Of a stretch of 64,000 nucleotides of DNA, positions 17,698-57,942 are shown piece after piece. Source of the DNA: Bacteroidia bacterium (GTDB lineage Bacteria; Bacteroidota; Bacteroidia; Palsa-965); the NCBI GenBank assembly GCA_039918435.1, contig JBDSHN010000075.1:13342-77341 (forward strand), in the 5' to 3' direction. Under the pieces are notes generated by a model. It was not told the origin of the DNA and made no database searches. It saw only the letters and a list, made by a program, of their open reading frames with translations. The translations under genes and the position numbers were made by a program. Positions within the stretch are counted from its first letter, which is position 1; each line of letters begins with the position of its first letter.

Positions 17698-18222
17698 ATG
17701 AGCACTACACCCATTACTCCCGATGAAATACTCGTCACCAAGATTCATTTCATTCGCGGACAAAAAGTAATGATCGATCGCGATCTGGCAGAATTGTATG
17801 TCGTGGAGACGAAGCAATTGAAAAGACAGGTTAACAGGAATATTGACCGTTTTCCCCAAGATTTCATGTTTCAAATTACTAAAGAAGAATTAGAATCTTT
17901 AAGGAGCCAATTTGGCACCTTAAAGCGAGGTGAGCATACTAAATTTTTACCATTTGCATTTACGGAACAAGGAGTAGCGATGCTTTCCAGCGTGCTTTCC
18001 AGCAAACAGGCAATCGCGGTAAACATTCAGATTATACGTGTGTTTACAAGAATGCGGGAAATTGTTAGTTCTAATAGAGAAGTATTAATAAAACTTGAGC
18101 AACTCGAGGCAAGCGTAAATACAAACAGGGATGATATTGAAGAGATTTTTTCTGCTTTACAAAAACTGTTGGATCCCGAATTGCCACCCCGGGATATGAT
18201 TGGTTATAAGCCAAATTCTTAA
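17698..18222 (+). CDS. ORF6N (KilA-N related) domain protein
   Basis: The N-terminus (ITKIHFIRGQKVMIDRDLAELYVVETKQLKRQVNRNIDRFPQDFMFQIT...FLPFAFTEQGVAMLSSVL) matches the ORF6N/antirepressor-type DNA-binding domain common in Bacteroidota. Confidence 0.65.
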   Translation: MSTTPITPDEILVTKIHFIRGQKVMIDRDLAELYVVETKQLKRQVNRNIDRFPQDFMFQITKEELESLRSQFGTLKRGEHTKFLPFAFTEQGVAMLSSVLSSKQAIAVNIQIIRVFTRMREIVSSNREVLIKLEQLEASVNTNRDDIEEIFSALQKLLDPELPPRDMIGYKPNS

Positions 18223-18373
18223 TGTAATCTTGCCCGGTTTCCTGCCGGTTTTATGTTTGAACTTAGCGCAAAGGAACTGACAGATTAGAGGTCGCATTTT
18301 GTGATCTCCAATTGCGATAAAAATGAGATTACATTACGCGCCATTTTGTGTTAAAGAACAAGGAATTACAACT

Positions 18374-18798
18374 CCCGTTTGTTCGAGCGAAGTCGGGAAC
18401 ACACGGGCTAAGGATTTTATTGATTATTCAAACGAATTTATGAGAAGAAGATTTCATGTTTATATTTTGCTTTGTGCTGATGGCACTTATTATACCGGTA
18501 TGACAAACAATATCTGTCGTCGATTCGCGGAACATGAAGCCGCTTATAATCCGAAATCATATACCGCATCGCGGCTACCAGTTAAATTAATGTGGACGGA
18601 ACGGTATGACTCACCACGTTTTGCTTACAAAATGGAATGGAAAATAAAGAAGTGGTCTGCAGCCAAGAAAAAAGCCTTAATTGAAGAACGATTTGACGAT
18701 CTGAAAAACCTGGCGCGCTGCCTGAATAAAACATCGCATGAAAACTGGAAGAAAATAATTGAATCCCGTGTGTTCTCGACTTCGCTCGAACAAACGGG
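18374..18798 (+). mobile_element. Putative IR-bounded GIY-YIG cassette
   Basis: 34-bp imperfect terminal inverted repeats flank the GIY-YIG ORF: cccgtttgttcgagcgaagtcgggaacacacggg at 18374-18407 and its reverse complement at 18765-18798. No transposase or integrase is present. Confidence 0.4.
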
Positions 18799-18808
18799 AG
18801 GGCCTTAA
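18440..18808 (+). CDS. GIY-YIG nuclease family protein (YhbQ/UPF0213-like)
   Basis: FHVYILLCADGTYYTGMTNNICRRFAEHEAAYNPKSYTASRLPVKLMWTERYDSPRFAYKMEWKIKKWS is a GIY-YIG core of about 90 aa with a basic tail. The last 13 codons are encoded by the right inverted repeat. The listed ORF has a spurious 39-codon N-terminal extension. Confidence 0.7.
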   Translation: MRRRFHVYILLCADGTYYTGMTNNICRRFAEHEAAYNPKSYTASRLPVKLMWTERYDSPRFAYKMEWKIKKWSAAKKKALIEERFDDLKNLARCLNKTSHENWKKIIESRVFSTSLEQTGGP

Positions 18809-18949
18809 AACATTTATTTTGTTTCGCTCGAACAAGCAGGACCTCCTTAAAACATTTATTTCTTTCGCTCGAGCAAACGGGACCTCCTTAAAACATTTAT
18901 TTTCTTTCGCTCGAGCAAACGGCACCTCCTTAGAAAATTTAGTATTTTT
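18781..18949. repeat. Tandem direct repeat, 4 units of about 41-44 bp
   Basis: The units are TTCGCTCGA(A/G)CAA(A/G)C(A/G)GG(A/C)CCTCCTTAAAACATTTATTT(T)CT x4, directly abutting with no spacers. The first unit is the 3' half of IR-R. Confidence 0.8.
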
Positions 18950-19083
18950 TTCGAGCGAAAAACTCAGGCAGTCCTAAAAGTTATTCCATGTTTATTTTTA
19001 AATGTTTTAGTTTGAAATTTACATTGCTACAAACGCAGAATGACTAAACAAGAATTTCCTCCCCGTTCACAACAAAAATCTTT

Positions 19084-19117
19084 CCCGTTTGTTCGAGCGA
19101 AGTCGAGAACACACGGG
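19084..19117. repeat. Third copy of the 34-bp repeat, A orientation
   Basis: cccgtttgttcgagcgaagtcgagaacacacggg matches 18374-18407 at 33 of 34 positions. It sits about 30 nt before the recJ start. Confidence 0.75.
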
Positions 19118-19148
19118 AACAAATAGTAAATTTGTAATTCAACACCAT

Positions 19149-20909
19149 ATGAAAGCACCTGAAAATTTAACCTTAGAAATGCACGCATCACTCATTTACG
19201 AACGACCCGCAAACCGCTGGAAAGGCAAAATCCGTCCGCCTGCAACTGCTGTCAAAGACCTTGCTCAACAGCTGAACGGGAATGAGGTTGTTGCCACGCT
19301 TTTATTGCAACGCGGAATTTCAACATACGATGAAGCAAAAAAATTTTTCCGTCCCTCGCTCGACGACCTCCATGATCCATTCCTGATGAAAGACATGGAT
19401 AAAGCTGTTGCACGTATTGAAGCAGCCATTTCCAACAATGAAAAAATTCTTGTATACGGCGATTATGATGTAGACGGAACAACGGCAGTCGCACTTTTTT
19501 ATACGTACCTGAAATCGCAGAATGCCAATTGTGGTTTTTATATTCCTGATCGTTATGCCGAAGGTTATGGCATTTCATTTATAGCAATCGATTTTGCGAA
19601 GCAGGAAAATTATTCGCTCATCGTTGCGCTTGACTGCGGGATAAAAGCGAATGATAAAGTCAGCTATGCAAATGAAAAAGGAATTGATTTTATCATTTGT
19701 GATCATCATCGTCCGGGAGCTGTTTTACCTGATGCCATTGCCGTGCTCGATCCTAAACGTGAGGATTGTTTTTATCCGTATGATGAGCTTTGCGGATGCG
19801 GAATCGGTTTTAAATTAGCCCAGGCCATCGCGCAAAATAGAAATGAATCCGTTTCTTCATTGGAACATCTGCTTGACTTAGTCGCAGTTGCCATCGCTGC
19901 TGATATTGTTCCACTGACCGGTGAAAATCGTGTGCTGGCAACCTTTGGAATGAAGCGCATCAATGAAGATCCGCGACCCGGCTTTAAAGCAATGCTTCAA
20001 ATGGCAAAGCTGAAACGCAGCATTTCTATTTCTGATGTGGTTTTTATTTTCGCTCCGCGCATTAACGCCGCAGGAAGAATTGAACATGGCAAACTTGCTG
20101 TCGAATTGCTGACTTCACTGAATGAGGAAACAGCCAAAGTCGCTGCGGAAGTTGTCAATAAAAATAATGCTGATCGCCGTGATCTTGACAAAGCAATGAC
20201 GTCGCATGCCATGGAAATGATGGCGGCTTCTGTGGTCATGCAGTCAAGAAAATCCACCGTCGTCTTTGATCCTGGCTGGCACAAGGGTGTTGTTGGAATT
20301 GTTGCATCACGTCTCATTGAAAAATATTACCGTCCGACAATTGTGCTCACGGAATCAAATGGCAAAGTCACAGGCTCTGCACGATCGGTAAAAGATTTTG
20401 ATGTTTACGAAGTCATCGAAGCATGCAGTGATTTATTGATCCAATTCGGCGGACATAAGTATGCAGCCGGATTAACGATGGATCCTGCAATGGTAGAAAC
20501 CTTCATAGAAAAATTTGAATCAGAAGTTTGTGCACGCATCACGGAGGAGCAAATGATTCCTGAAATAGAAATCGACATGGAGATTCCTTTCGAAATGATC
20601 GATTGGAAATTTTTCGCTGTGCTAAAACAATTTGCGCCTTTTGGTCCGGGAAATATGAGTCCTGTTTTTCTGAGCAAAAAGGTCTGTGATCGCGGCTGGG
20701 CTAGAATAGTAGGGGAGCGCCATCTGAAAATGGATTTAATTAATCCTTCCAATCCTGATAGAATTTTCCCTGCGATTGCTTTTGGTTTCGGGAATATGCT
20801 TTCGTCGCTAGCGAATAAAAATGAAGTGAATGTTTGTTATACGATTGATGAGAATGAATATAATGGGAAGGTAAGTTTGCAGTTGGGAGTGAAGGATATG
20901 CGATGTTAG
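19149..20909 (+). CDS. recJ: Single-stranded-DNA-specific exonuclease RecJ
   Basis: DHH motifs (ILVYGDYDVDGTTAVAL; FIICDHHRP), a DHHA1 region (GGHKYAAGLT) and a C-terminal OB-like region. The listed ORF at 19089 begins inside the repeat, so 19149 (MKAPENL) is the more plausible start. Confidence 0.85.
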   Translation: MKAPENLTLEMHASLIYERPANRWKGKIRPPATAVKDLAQQLNGNEVVATLLLQRGISTYDEAKKFFRPSLDDLHDPFLMKDMDKAVARIEAAISNNEKILVYGDYDVDGTTAVALFYTYLKSQNANCGFYIPDRYAEGYGISFIAIDFAKQENYSLIVALDCGIKANDKVSYANEKGIDFIICDHHRPGAVLPDAIAVLDPKREDCFYPYDELCGCGIGFKLAQAIAQNRNESVSSLEHLLDLVAVAIAADIVPLTGENRVLATFGMKRINEDPRPGFKAMLQMAKLKRSISISDVVFIFAPRINAAGRIEHGKLAVELLTSLNEETAKVAAEVVNKNNADRRDLDKAMTSHAMEMMAASVVMQSRKSTVVFDPGWHKGVVGIVASRLIEKYYRPTIVLTESNGKVTGSARSVKDFDVYEVIEACSDLLIQFGGHKYAAGLTMDPAMVETFIEKFESEVCARITEEQMIPEIEIDMEIPFEMIDWKFFAVLKQFAPFGPGNMSPVFLSKKVCDRGWARIVGERHLKMDLINPSNPDRIFPAIAFGFGNMLSSLANKNEVNVCYTIDENEYNGKVSLQLGVKDMRC

Positions 20910-20951: not shown

Positions 20952-21347
20952 ATGAAGAAAGAAGAATACCACCGGCTTGCGTCTGAGATTGTCAGTTCGT
21001 GCATTGAAGTTCATCGTCACATGGGACCTGGATTACTTGAATCCGTATATGAGGAATGTTTAATGAAGGAATTTGAGTTGCGTGGAATTTTTGCAGAGTC
21101 TCAGGTTGTAGTGCCGCTTTATTATAAAGGATATCGATTGGATAAGAGGTTTGAGGTTGATATTCTTATTGAGAGGGAAATTGTGCTGGAGCTAAAAGCA
21201 GTTTTGCTGATGCATCCTGTTTTTGAATTTCAATTGCTCTCCCATTTAAAACTTGCAGATAAACGCCTGGGATTTTTGCTCAATTTTAATGTTCCCTTAA
21301 TGAAAGATGGAATTAAGAGGAAAGTGAATGATTTTTTCCTGGACTGA
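20952..21347 (+). CDS. GxxExxY family protein (PD-(D/E)XK-like)
   Basis: HMGPGLLESVYEECLMKEFELRGI...YYKGYRLDKRFEVDILIEREIVLELKAV is the GxxExxY signature family. Confidence 0.65.
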   Translation: MKKEEYHRLASEIVSSCIEVHRHMGPGLLESVYEECLMKEFELRGIFAESQVVVPLYYKGYRLDKRFEVDILIEREIVLELKAVLLMHPVFEFQLLSHLKLADKRLGFLLNFNVPLMKDGIKRKVNDFFLD

Positions 21348-31174: not shown

Positions 31175-31184
31175 CTTAAATCAA

Positions 31185-31256
31185 TTTGCTAATATGCTGA
31201 TGAGTTAATGTGCTAATCCCGTCAGCACTTTATTATTGGCAAATTAGCACATGCTG
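31185..31256. repeat. TGCTAAT-heptad repeat element, copy 1
   Basis: tttgctaatatgctgatgagttaatgtgctaatcc ... ggcaaattagcacatgctg contains a 10-bp inverted pair atgtgctaat/attagcacat. It shares TTTGCTAATATGCT(A/G)ATGA with copy 3 and abuts the rlmN stop. Confidence 0.6.
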
Positions 31257-43456: not shown

Positions 43457-43788
43457 CTGAATAAATTAAGGGATGCAAAAATAGTTTTCATAATGACAGG
43501 AAAGAAAAGTATTAGACGACAGGAAATTCAGGTCAGACCGATGACGTATGGACAGCGATGAGTGAATAAATAATATGCAGCAGGAGGAAAAATTATTGAG
43601 CAATTCCCCATATTGGGAAAAATTTTTATTTTATTTTGCCTGGTATAGCTGCGGCAAATTATTTTAAAAAGATGGAAGAAATAGTACAGCGTTGAGACAA
43701 AAAATAGCCGCCATTTAAGAGGGCAGCTATGAAAATATTAAAGTGGGACGTACTGGGTTCGTCCGCCGCGGCGGACAGTGAACTCTAC

Positions 43789-44034
43789 TTAATATCCTGT
43801 TTGAGATTTAATAAAATCTCTTCCCTTGCCGCTTTTAAGAAATTTCTCACGTGCTATTGCTTCGGATCGTGTTTCAAATTCTTCTTTGTAAATCAAGCTC
43901 CATGGACCTTTATTCTTGGTATAAACACCAAGCAATCCAAGATTGTGCTGAATTAGCCGGGTTTCAATATCCTCAGTATGCCCAGTGTACTTTTTACAAA
44001 CTTTTTCAGAAAAGATGACATAAATATAAAACAT
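43789..44034 (-). CDS. GIY-YIG nuclease family protein (YhbQ/UPF0213-like)
   Basis: The 81-aa protein MFYIYVIFSEKVCKKYTGHTEDIETRLIQHN...FETRSEAIAREKFLKSGKGRDFIK is a paralogue of 48020..48307. Confidence 0.7.
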   Translation of the reverse strand: MFYIYVIFSEKVCKKYTGHTEDIETRLIQHNLGLLGVYTKNKGPWSLIYKEEFETRSEAIAREKFLKSGKGRDFIKSQTGY

Positions 44035-44042
44035 AGCTTAAC

Positions 44043-44074
44043 AAAAAAATAGCTACCAATTGAAGTTGGCAGCT
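44043..44074 (-). terminator. Hairpin plus U-run between tRNA-Val(GAC) and the GIY-YIG ORF
   Basis: On the minus strand: agcugcc, loop, gguagcu, then AUUUUUUU. The ORF start codon is 8 nt further on. Confidence 0.6.
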
Positions 44075-44094
44075 ATGGTTATTATTAAATTTTG

Positions 44095-44169
44095 TGGGAC
44101 GTACTGGGTTCGAACCAGTGACCTCTACGTTGTCGACGTAGCGCTCTAAACCAGCTGAGCTAACATCCC
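44095..44169 (-). tRNA. tRNA-Val (anticodon GAC)
   Basis: Minus strand: GGGATGTTAGCTCAGCTGGTTTAGAGCGCTACGTCGACAACGTAGAGGTCACTGGTTCGAACCCAGTACGTCCCA. It has D- and T-arm consensus, the anticodon loop TCGACAA, and a 7-bp acceptor stem with one G-U pair. The discriminator is A and CCA is not encoded. Confidence 0.85.
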
Positions 44170-47903: not shown

Positions 47904-47981
47904 GGGAGCTTAGCTCAGCTGGTTCAGAGCACCTGCCTTACAAGCAGGGGGTCATAGGTTCGAACCCTATAGCTCCCACCA
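47904..47981 (+). tRNA. tRNA-Val (anticodon TAC), CCA encoded
   Basis: GGGAGCTTAGCTCAGCTGGTTCAGAGCACCTGCCTTACAAGCAGGGGGTCATAGGTTCGAACCCTATAGCTCCCACCA. The anticodon loop is CTTACAA and the fold is a canonical cloverleaf. Confidence 0.85.
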
Positions 47982-47988
47982 CATTCTA

Positions 47989-48019
47989 CCCACTTTCTAT
48001 TATGAAAGTGGGTTTTTTT
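47989..48019 (+). terminator. Hairpin plus T7 between the tRNA and the GIY-YIG ORF
   Basis: cccactttc, loop tattat, gaaagtggg (9-bp stem), then TTTTTTT directly abutting the ATG at 48020. Confidence 0.65.
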
Positions 48020-48307
48020 ATGCCTAAAATCTACATCCTCTTTTCCAAAAAATTGAATAAATACTACGTTGGGTATACTTCTGATGATTTGGAAGAGCGT
48101 TTGAGAAAGCATAATTCTAATCACTCGGGTTTTACAGGCGGATTTGGTGATTGGGAGATTAAGCATTTCGAGTCTTTCGAAACAAAAGAAGAAGCATTAA
48201 TCAGAGAAAAACAAATAAAAGGGTGGAAGAGCAGAAAATTGATAGAAAAACTAATCAAAAAATATGATTCAGAGCATCCCGACATGAAGTCGGGAGGAAC
48301 CCTATAG
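48020..48307 (+). CDS. GIY-YIG nuclease family protein (YhbQ/UPF0213-like)
   Basis: MPKIYILFSKKLNKYYVGYTSDDLEERLRKHN...FETKEEALIREKQIKGWKSRK has a GIY-YIG core. The listed ORF 47882..48307 runs spuriously through the tRNA. Confidence 0.7.
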   Translation: MPKIYILFSKKLNKYYVGYTSDDLEERLRKHNSNHSGFTGGFGDWEIKHFESFETKEEALIREKQIKGWKSRKLIEKLIKKYDSEHPDMKSGGTL

Positions 48308-48371
48308 CTCCCACAACTAAAAGCCTGTTAATACGCTGTATTGACAGGCTTTTCTGCTTTTAAATAAGCGG

Positions 48372-57740: not shown

Positions 57741-57777
57741 AATGTGCTAATCTGCTAATGGGTTAATGTGCTAATGA
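57741..57777. repeat. TGCTAAT-heptad repeat element, copy 2
   Basis: aatgtgctaatctgctaatgggttaatgtgctaatga lies 7 nt after the ACAD stop. A weak hairpin plus T-run follows at 57776-57808. Confidence 0.65.
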
Positions 57778-57942
57778 AAAAGCCGGTCTTAGTTGATCGG
57801 CTTTTTTGTGGGGTTTAGGAAAAGAAGTTGAAAATGATCAGGAGCTATTCCGGCTATCCGCTGCAAGTCCTCCCATAAAGTACGCGCTGCGCTTGACTTT
57901 ATGGTCCGGGCTTTACGCTGCTATCCGGGCTAAAAAAAATCA

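Follow-up and report, generated by a model that had tools for sequence, protein, structure and literature searches.

The GIY-YIG locus beside recJ

A 64-kb stretch of contig JBDSHN010000075.1, from a metagenome-assembled genome (MAG) of a Bacteroidia bacterium, was analysed and is referred to here as the window. Upstream of recJ, it carries a small gene for a GIY-YIG nuclease of the UPF0213/YhbQ type that is flanked by inverted copies of a 34-nt hairpin. A tandem array of half-hairpin units follows the gene, and a third hairpin copy precedes recJ (Table 1). The pairing of this gene with this hairpin is the subject of the present analysis.

The 34-mer, CCCGTTTGTTCGAGCGAAGTCGGGAACACACGGG, is found in three copies with 0, 1 and 1 mismatches in order of position. 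The initial annotation had described the repeat as a hairpin with a 10-bp stem, and each copy does fold into a hairpin, with a 5+5 bp stem, one T.C mismatch and a 12-nt loop. The stability of these folds is modest (-8 to -10 kcal/mol; z-scores -1.9 to -2.8). No further copy with three or fewer mismatches occurs in the 64 kb, where the shuffle expectation is 0.00. The inverted arms reach 36 nt, with positions 18764-18799 and 19083-19118 complementary at 100% and positions 18372-18407 and 18765-18800 complementary at 97%.

The head-to-tail array of roughly 42-bp units that had been noted after the open reading frame (ORF) was recovered by Tandem Repeats Finder with 88% matches. Its first unit is the right hairpin copy's own half, and the half units of the window have their boundary after GAGCGAA. 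The half-site TTCGCTCGARCAAAC occurs seven times in the window, all inside 18377-19101, against an expectation of 0.47. We rejected a reading of the array as short palindromic repeats of the clustered, regularly interspaced kind (CRISPR), as the whole 42-bp unit repeats, no unique spacers are present and the neighbours are not cas-like. Two listed ORFs across the array, 18677..18925 on the minus strand and 18759..18977 on the plus strand, have no support as genes and are translations of the repeats, as had been proposed. Elsewhere in the window, 31183-31217 and 57741-57776 are two separate short arrays with the common 8-nt unit AATGTGCT, each of about 4.4 copies.

The repeats also distort the gene models. 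The true start of the GIY-YIG gene is the ATG at 18440, as in its orthologues, and the listed 161-aa ORF from 18323, which is also the GenBank model, reads through the left hairpin. An exact database look-up of the 122-aa product gave no match because the database entry is the 161-aa model. At the other end, the conserved part of the protein, a core of 108 aa, stops near 18763, after ...SHENWK, and the tails of the orthologues beyond this point are unrelated. The C-terminal tail in the window, VFSTSLEQTGGP, comprises about the last 14 codons and results from translation that continues through the right hairpin sequence and into the array's first unit. The right repeat had been credited with the last 13 codons plus stop; it covers codons 109-120, and the two remaining codons with the TAA stop (18806-18808) fall within that first unit. 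The listed TTG start of recJ at 19089 is likewise an artefact of repeat translation, in line with the earlier suspicion about its N-terminal codons.

No terminator-like call was made at the three window hairpins, none of which is followed by a T-run; the terminator of the upstream ORF6N-domain gene (18234-18248) is called. Promoter-like matches around the hairpins were at chance level only. Rfam 15 returned nothing at gathering score for the hairpins in the window or at 10 motif loci, with only chance-level matches at E-values up to 10. A match to Flavo-1 RNA (RF01705) at 57843-57935 on the minus strand of the window places the window in Bacteroidota and is unrelated to the hairpins; a further copy of this RNA, in locus L065 (671-747), lies about 80 nt from a family hairpin.

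Table 1. Features at and around the GIY-YIG locus, in window coordinates.
Feature	Position	Strand	Remarks
ORF6N-domain gene	17698..18222	+	Upstream neighbour; order relative to the GIY-YIG gene varies among orthologous loci
Left hairpin copy	18374..18407	+	CCCGTTTGTTC-GAGCGAAGTCGG-GAACACACGGG; loop ends in TCGG, not TCGA; GIY-YIG start 32 nt downstream
GIY-YIG nuclease gene, UPF0213/YhbQ type	18440..18808	+	122 aa; PF01541, 52.5 bits (cut-off 22.6), E = 6e-14
Right hairpin copy, inverted	18765..18798	-	Overlapped by the 3' end of the GIY-YIG ORF
Tandem array, 42 bp x 3.9	18781..18941	+	Each unit joins the hairpin's distal half, TTCGCTCGARCAAACGGGA, to an AT-rich tail of about 23 nt, CCTCCTTAAAACATTTATTTTCT
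Degenerate half-site, opposite orientation	18946..18960	+	TTTTTTCGAGCGAAA; fifth half-site, closes the array
Third hairpin copy	19084..19117	+	31 nt upstream of the true recJ start
recJ (DHH, DHHA1, RecJ_OB)	19149..20909	+	Neighbour, outside the element; true start ATG 19149
PDDEXK_3 ('GxxExxY') nuclease-family gene	20952-21347		Directly after recJ

A stable gene with changing hairpins

We compared the locus with five related assemblies, all of which carry the GIY-YIG gene at the same site beside recJ. GIY-YIG and RecJ identities to the window were 88.5% and 88.9% in L001, 86.7% and 89.1% in L007, and 70.5% and 66.2% in L002. The ratio of nonsynonymous to synonymous substitution rates (dN/dS) was 0.024-0.035 for the GIY-YIG gene and 0.046 for recJ, with dS saturated. 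Because it is syntenic, co-diverges with RecJ and has a low dN/dS, the GIY-YIG gene is, by sequence comparison, resident, vertically inherited and under strong purifying selection. By the same measures, it is not a recently mobile cassette.

The flanking hairpins vary among the orthologous loci in orientation, number and form, occurring as singles, as half-unit arrays with periods of 28-42 and as doublet units of about 115 bp. In L001, a half-unit array of period 28 lies upstream of the gene, a reverse full copy and an extra half lie at its 3' end, and a forward copy precedes recJ. In L007, a half-plus-tail unit like that of the window array lies upstream of the gene, and both gene-flanking copies have the orientation opposite to that of the window copies. 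We discarded a simple inversion between the inverted copies as an explanation for this difference, since the hairpins are flipped and the strand of the gene is kept. At L007 760-840, the upstream hairpin stands in for the 3' end of the ORF6N gene, which encodes 149 aa there and 174 aa in the window; arrival or movement of the hairpin has therefore truncated the neighbouring gene. In L002 and L004, the gene has a unit of about 115 bp on either side, in which the hairpin core forms terminal inverted repeats of 22-27 nt.

The hairpin sequence itself is strongly conserved across the orthologous genomes (31-33 of 34 positions identical, T.C mismatch included). The recJ-proximal copy is also kept in position, with 32/34 identical nucleotides in L001 and 31/34 in L007, despite saturated synonymous sites. 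This identity is far above the level that saturated neutral sites would allow.

Association of the hairpin with the GIY-YIG subfamily

More distant relatives were examined in a partly redundant sample of 80 metagenomic loci that encode relatives of the GIY-YIG protein at 36-54% identity. Hairpins were counted when they had a GAGC-N3-4-TCGA loop and a perfect stem of at least 4 bp. This yielded 131 hairpins at most 300 bp from the gene; the remaining ~250 kb contained 22, and shuffles gave 0.15. Hairpins within 300 bp were present in 46 of the 80 loci, on both sides of the gene in 32 of the 80, and in 34 of 52 protein clusters at 70% identity. In about 55 of 69 loci, a blind alignment of the upstream against the downstream flank detected a common repeat above the level of the control, and nearly all of these repeats were of this hairpin kind. 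With a strict 16-mer core, the density per kb was 1.36 near the gene, compared with 0.38 in the rest of the intergenic DNA at these loci and 0.02 in coding sequence.

The orientation of the hairpins is biased, not fixed: upstream of the gene, 44 copies were in the plus and 26 in the minus orientation, and downstream, 37 were in the minus and 24 in the plus orientation. They often overlap the 3' end of the gene or sit just upstream of its start. Hairpin-gene-hairpin layouts also occur in isolates, namely Geojedonia litorea, Lacinutrix sp. MEBiC02595, Jiulongibacter sediminis and Sphingomonas parapaucimobilis YK209. The same gene-plus-hairpin pairing thus recurs across distant bacterial phyla. 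None of 22 viral GIY-YIG loci had hairpins, and the viral proteins are devoid of the C-terminal extension; the 21-nt hairpin core used below had no match in viral contigs. In J. sediminis (L233 200-1400), the GIY-YIG gene and its hairpins form a tandem duplication with a period of 581 bp. The same locus holds a 22-nt half-unit array and a loop variant ending in CCGA.

The hairpin family

Around relatives of the GIY-YIG gene, we collected 170 unique instances picked by the conserved centre alone. The common form is a stem of 4-5 bp with variable sequence around a conserved centre of 11-12 nt, GAGC-(GNA or YT)-GTCGA. Stem positions 1-4 are paired in 89-92% of the instances, as opposed to 38-74% with shuffled partners. 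Stem pair 3 covaries, occurring as CG (57), GC (43), TA (27) and AT (21), and the hairpins near the gene have 60 distinct stems at loci with a GC content of 32 to 65%. The centre probably forms tandem sheared G.A pairs and a C-GNA-G triloop. Some lineages have an extra hairpin inserted in the conserved centre.

Near GIY-YIG genes, the stem is preceded by an unpaired 5' tag, (T/C)GTCA (TGTCA in 69/170 and CGTCA in 10/170). The 3' side has no conserved tag or tail in the 170 instances. The window form is without the (T/C)GTCA tag, with a CGTTT that is taken up into its longer stem.

Arrays and dispersal away from the gene

Whole or half units often form tandem arrays next to the gene, with periods of 15, 21, 22, 25, 27 and 28 nt and up to 9.9 copies. 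Because they recur in this way, the 42-bp array of the window is a family trait and not a local oddity, and the tandem amplification suggested by the initial annotation is borne out as a recurrent property of half units.

One genome per species was scanned for the 21-nt core of the hairpin, TGTTCGAGCGNAGNCGRGAAC. The scan identified at least 120 loci from Flavobacteriaceae, Streptomyces, Sphingomonas, candidate-phyla bacteria, Stahlbacteria, Omnitrophota and others. On another contig of a sister MAG, a solitary hairpin copy has its own 19-nt half-unit array. A 100-kb section of a Sphingomonas replicon contains 11 hairpins at six intergenic sites, mostly as head-to-head doublets, and five of them are at most 0.9 kb from the gene. 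Inverted doublets were also found in L002, L004 and L176; the window has no such doublet. The initial annotation had considered that the repeats might be scattered without any link to GIY-YIG genes. Most core copies elsewhere are indeed not beside the gene, as is the case for the known repeats and enzymes discussed below, while the gene family is strongly tied to the hairpins.

In Streptomyces (L011, L013, L014 and about 50 others among the matches listed), an identical core is embedded in a repeat of about 65 nt, GCGGCnCCGCnGCGATGGGGGTCCCCCC-core-TTGGGGGAG, and no GIY-YIG gene of the subfamily is found in the surrounding 4 kb or so of these loci. Four core copies are spaced about 113 nt apart in Formosa sp. 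4Alg 33 (L079 5750-6109), and another Flavobacteriaceae locus has three at 228 nt (L106 3380-3837); both are long-period arrays of composite units. The 395-kb Sphingomonas parapaucimobilis record NZ_CP155752.1 (L236/L237) is a plasmid by label. With its genes for ribosomal proteins, RNA polymerase and ATP synthase and its his genes, it behaves like a chromosome segment or chromid.

The GIY-YIG protein and other genes of the window

The protein belongs to a large family, with 7,308 representative clusters at E-values up to 1e-3. NCBIfam has no model for it. Among 49 sequences, the catalytic positions Y8, Y17/Y18, R28, H32 and E66 show either no variation or a conservation of at least 90%. The nearest structures in the PDB by sequence are the UPF0213 proteins BH0048 (1zg2, E = 1.1e-11) and EF2693 (1ywl, E = 4.6e-9). 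A fold comparison likewise placed 1zg2 and 1ywl first, followed by the branched-DNA nuclease Slx1. UPF0213 proteins have solved structures and, to our knowledge, no assigned function. The AlphaFold2 model (predicted local distance difference test score of 90) consists of a GIY-YIG core and a short C-terminal helical extension, and the C-terminal helices of the subfamily carry a conserved stretch that contains Cys and His. In six of the relatives' loci (L145, L165, L179, L187, L171 and L195), the GIY-YIG domain is the N-terminus of an open frame of about 400-500 aa, either by fusion or by read-through.

The PDDEXK_3 gene beyond recJ is syntenic in L001 (89.8% identity) and in a 144-kb Joint Genome Institute (JGI) contig. 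Flanking repeats were looked for around this gene and none were found.

Two other small GIY-YIG genes of the window are linked to tRNA genes. Their products are only 28-29% identical to that of the gene beside recJ and belong to a different subfamily, and no family hairpins are present at either. The first, 43789..44034 on the minus strand, lies within 43700-44169 between two stretches of about 68 nt repeated in direct orientation (43700-43761 and 44045-44112), each of which corresponds to the 3' end of tRNA-Val(gac) with its trailer hairpin. This region looks like a cassette of about 350 bp put in at the tRNA end. The second, 48020..48307 on the plus strand, follows tRNA-Val(tac) within 47904-48318, and its 3' end forms a shortened pseudo-tRNA. 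The latter contains duplicates of the D-arm and of the T-arm/acceptor (48265-48276 and 48297-48317), with the hairpin CCCGACATGAAGTCGGG in place of the anticodon arm. The gene beside recJ had been thought to follow the same logic as these tRNA cassettes. The likeness is only superficial, given the different subfamily, the direct duplications of tRNA 3' ends and the lack of such hairpins.

Comparison with known repeat and nuclease systems

Repetitive extragenic palindromes (REPs), their inverted doublets (REPINs) and their REP-associated tyrosine transposases (RAYTs) are the closest parallel. REPs are dispersed, high-copy elements that often number more than 100 per genome. By published descriptions of REPs, both kinds of repeat are short imperfect palindromes with a conserved unpaired 5' tag that occur as singles, head-to-head doublets and clusters at dispersed intergenic sites. 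In both, copies of the repeat border the enzyme gene, often in inverted orientation and reaching into the gene ends, and the gene is resident and vertically inherited. The differences concern enzyme and repeat alike. The enzyme at our locus is a GIY-YIG nuclease and not an HUH/Y1 transposase of the IS200/IS605 kind, and no HUH/Y1 transposase gene was called in the neighbouring orthologous loci. The tag is (T/C)GTCA and not GTAG, the conserved part is the centre of the hairpin and not the stem, half-unit arrays are prominent and the copy number in the window is very low. With a GIY-YIG nuclease as its enzyme and a tag other than GTAG, the system is not a member of the REP/RAYT group.

A second comparison is with the REP super-family tagged with CGTC or TGTC that Di Nocera et al. 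2013 (PMC3733652) describe as elements that 'apparently lack a dedicated transposase'. In that paper, these families have stems of 8-9 bp, loops of 4-5 nt and a CCA tail, the REP-encoded peptides include VIAGLDPAIH and DGRVKPGHD, and ORFs below 120 aa were excluded from the intragenic analysis. They resemble our hairpins in the unpaired CGTC/TGTC tag followed by a stem that starts with A, a tag seen in part of our 170 instances and absent from the window copy, in occurring mostly as head-to-head dimers, and in their presence in Alphaproteobacteria, Bacteroidetes and Spirochaetes. Our family differs from them in its 4-5 bp stem, its 11-12 nt centre, the absence of a 3' tail and its encoded peptides (VFSTSLEQTG and LDSARx). 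We rejected identity with the CGTC-1 to CGTC-4 REPs on stem and loop sizes and on the encoded peptides. The common tag is a lead and not a sign of membership.

The comparison can also start from the enzyme. In sequence and fold, the UPF0213/YhbQ proteins and Slx1 are closest, and their catalytic residues are kept; the subfamily described here differs in having its own C-terminal helices. Slx1 depends on Slx4 and on a RING domain, and it is not known to have a sequence preference when it cuts branched DNA. Free-standing GIY-YIG homing endonucleases, such as I-TevI and the Seg proteins of phages, are likewise small GIY-YIG genes between unrelated genes. They have a separate DNA-binding domain and are distributed sporadically among relatives. 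Our gene differs in being syntenic, under purifying selection and without such a domain, and we did not assign it to this class, as it is present in 5/5 related assemblies at the same site with a dN/dS of 0.02-0.04.

Finally, the ~115-bp units on both sides of the gene in L002 and L004 have terminal inverted repeats of 22-27 nt, a feature in common with transposable elements of the miniature inverted-repeat type (MITEs). No transposase of a known insertion sequence (IS) family is linked to them, and the element in the window, by comparison, is a bare 34-nt hairpin. We found no description in the literature of a GIY-YIG protein (COG2827/YhbQ/UPF0213) paired with REP, REPIN, RAYT or MITE repeats, nor of the motif string. 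The pairing of a GIY-YIG gene with cognate hairpins is apparently an undescribed counterpart of the REP/RAYT systems.

A nuclease with proposed cognate hairpins

A resident and selected gene is flanked by tagged palindromes, which are dispersed, turn over rapidly in their copies and have a conserved centre with a covarying stem. For these reasons, we favour the interpretation that the locus is a REP/RAYT-like pairing in which a resident UPF0213-type GIY-YIG nuclease, of a different enzyme class, is accompanied by cognate hairpin repeats on which it would act. We assign a probability of roughly 55% to this interpretation. We infer that the nuclease binds or cuts the hairpin and thereby drives its copying. 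Under such a mechanism, the nuclease would recognise the hairpin in its extruded form in duplex DNA or as single-stranded DNA exposed at a replication fork, and would nick it in or beside the conserved centre. Repair, template switching or re-ligation might then yield local whole- or half-unit arrays such as the 42-bp array of the window, flipped or relocated copies, head-to-head doublets and, occasionally, new genomic copies. The initial annotation had proposed a REP/MITE-like element with the nuclease as its mobilising activity. Its first half agrees with a hairpin family that flanks subfamily genes in many lineages and is also dispersed; mobilisation by the nuclease did not gain support.

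Several observations count against a REP/RAYT-like pairing. Among the core matches listed, 117 of 120 have no subfamily GIY-YIG gene within about 4 kb, and the window has only three full copies in 64 kb, all of them at the gene. With the strict 16-mer core, the enrichment near the gene over other intergenic DNA is only 3.6-fold, which is below the per-base figure. Canonical loops near the gene are absent from 34 of the 80 relatives, some of which have variant or expanded loops, and the 80 metagenomic loci are partly dependent on one another. In the protein, no domain other than GIY-YIG was found, and a separate DNA-binding domain is not obvious.

It is conceivable, if unlikely, that the hairpins are functional cis-elements or structural motifs of DNA or RNA, such as operators, stabilisers of mRNA ends or protein-binding sites. 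The nuclease would then be a host factor that processes or tolerates them or is regulated through them, and the arrays would be products of slippage, for which palindromes are general hot-spots. The retention of the recJ-proximal copy in position in three genomes fits this explanation, as do the many hairpins that overlap a gene's 3' end or just precede its start. REP-type elements can also act as structural elements of RNA or DNA, according to PMC3733652. A strand-specific RNA signal is nevertheless hard to reconcile with hairpins that take either orientation upstream as well as downstream of the gene, and the lack of T-runs and of an Rfam match makes them unlike terminators or known RNA families. 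Functional cis-elements would also not be expected to shift in number, orientation and form between close relatives while the gene stays, or to occur with similar half-unit arrays far from any GIY-YIG gene.

We consider it improbable that the GIY-YIG gene is a selfish cassette that homes into pre-existing hairpins, so that the flanking copies are remains or duplications of its target and the hairpins have spread by other means. The tRNA-linked GIY-YIG genes of the window, which are cassette-like and lie inside duplicated tRNA 3' ends, lend this explanation some weight. The same is true of the variable order of the ORF6N and GIY-YIG genes between orthologous loci and of the tandemly duplicated gene and hairpins in Jiulongibacter. 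Moreover, elements of the IS110 family are known to insert into REPs (ISPpu9). A hopping or decaying homing gene would not, however, be expected to keep its site, to co-diverge with recJ at saturated dS or to have a dN/dS of 0.02-0.04. Furthermore, each flank carries complete hairpins, where a single target split by insertion would leave one half on each side, the protein is without an additional DNA-binding domain of the I-TevI or Seg kind, and the viral GIY-YIG relatives are without hairpins.

Chance or an assembly artefact is a very improbable source of the pattern: although the window comes from a MAG contig and misassembly is a common risk with repeats, the number of copies expected by chance is zero, the array units are not identical to one another (88% matches), and equivalent layouts occur in independent assemblies and in isolate genomes.

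Implications for an orphan protein family

REP-type hairpins are among the commonest repeats of bacterial genomes, and we know of a cognate enzyme, RAYT, only for those with a GTAG tag. If the GIY-YIG nuclease acts on the hairpin, the pairing described here would represent an independent origin of a partnership between a repeat and a host-resident enzyme. The odd tails and N-terminal extensions that repeats contribute to annotations of these genes, such as the 161-aa GenBank model, would then be explained as well. A wider proposal, which we put forward tentatively and regard as open to considerable doubt, is that UPF0213-type nucleases are the dedicated enzymes of tagged hairpin repeats across phyla. 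This would constitute a second REP-like system, independent of RAYT, and among prokaryotic systems of repeats or mobile DNA it would be the first that is driven by a GIY-YIG enzyme. If true, it would provide a function for a large orphan protein family, and it might explain how tagged REPs that 'lack a dedicated transposase' are made and maintained. The specific and conserved pairing gives the orphan protein and the orphan hairpin each a testable partner.

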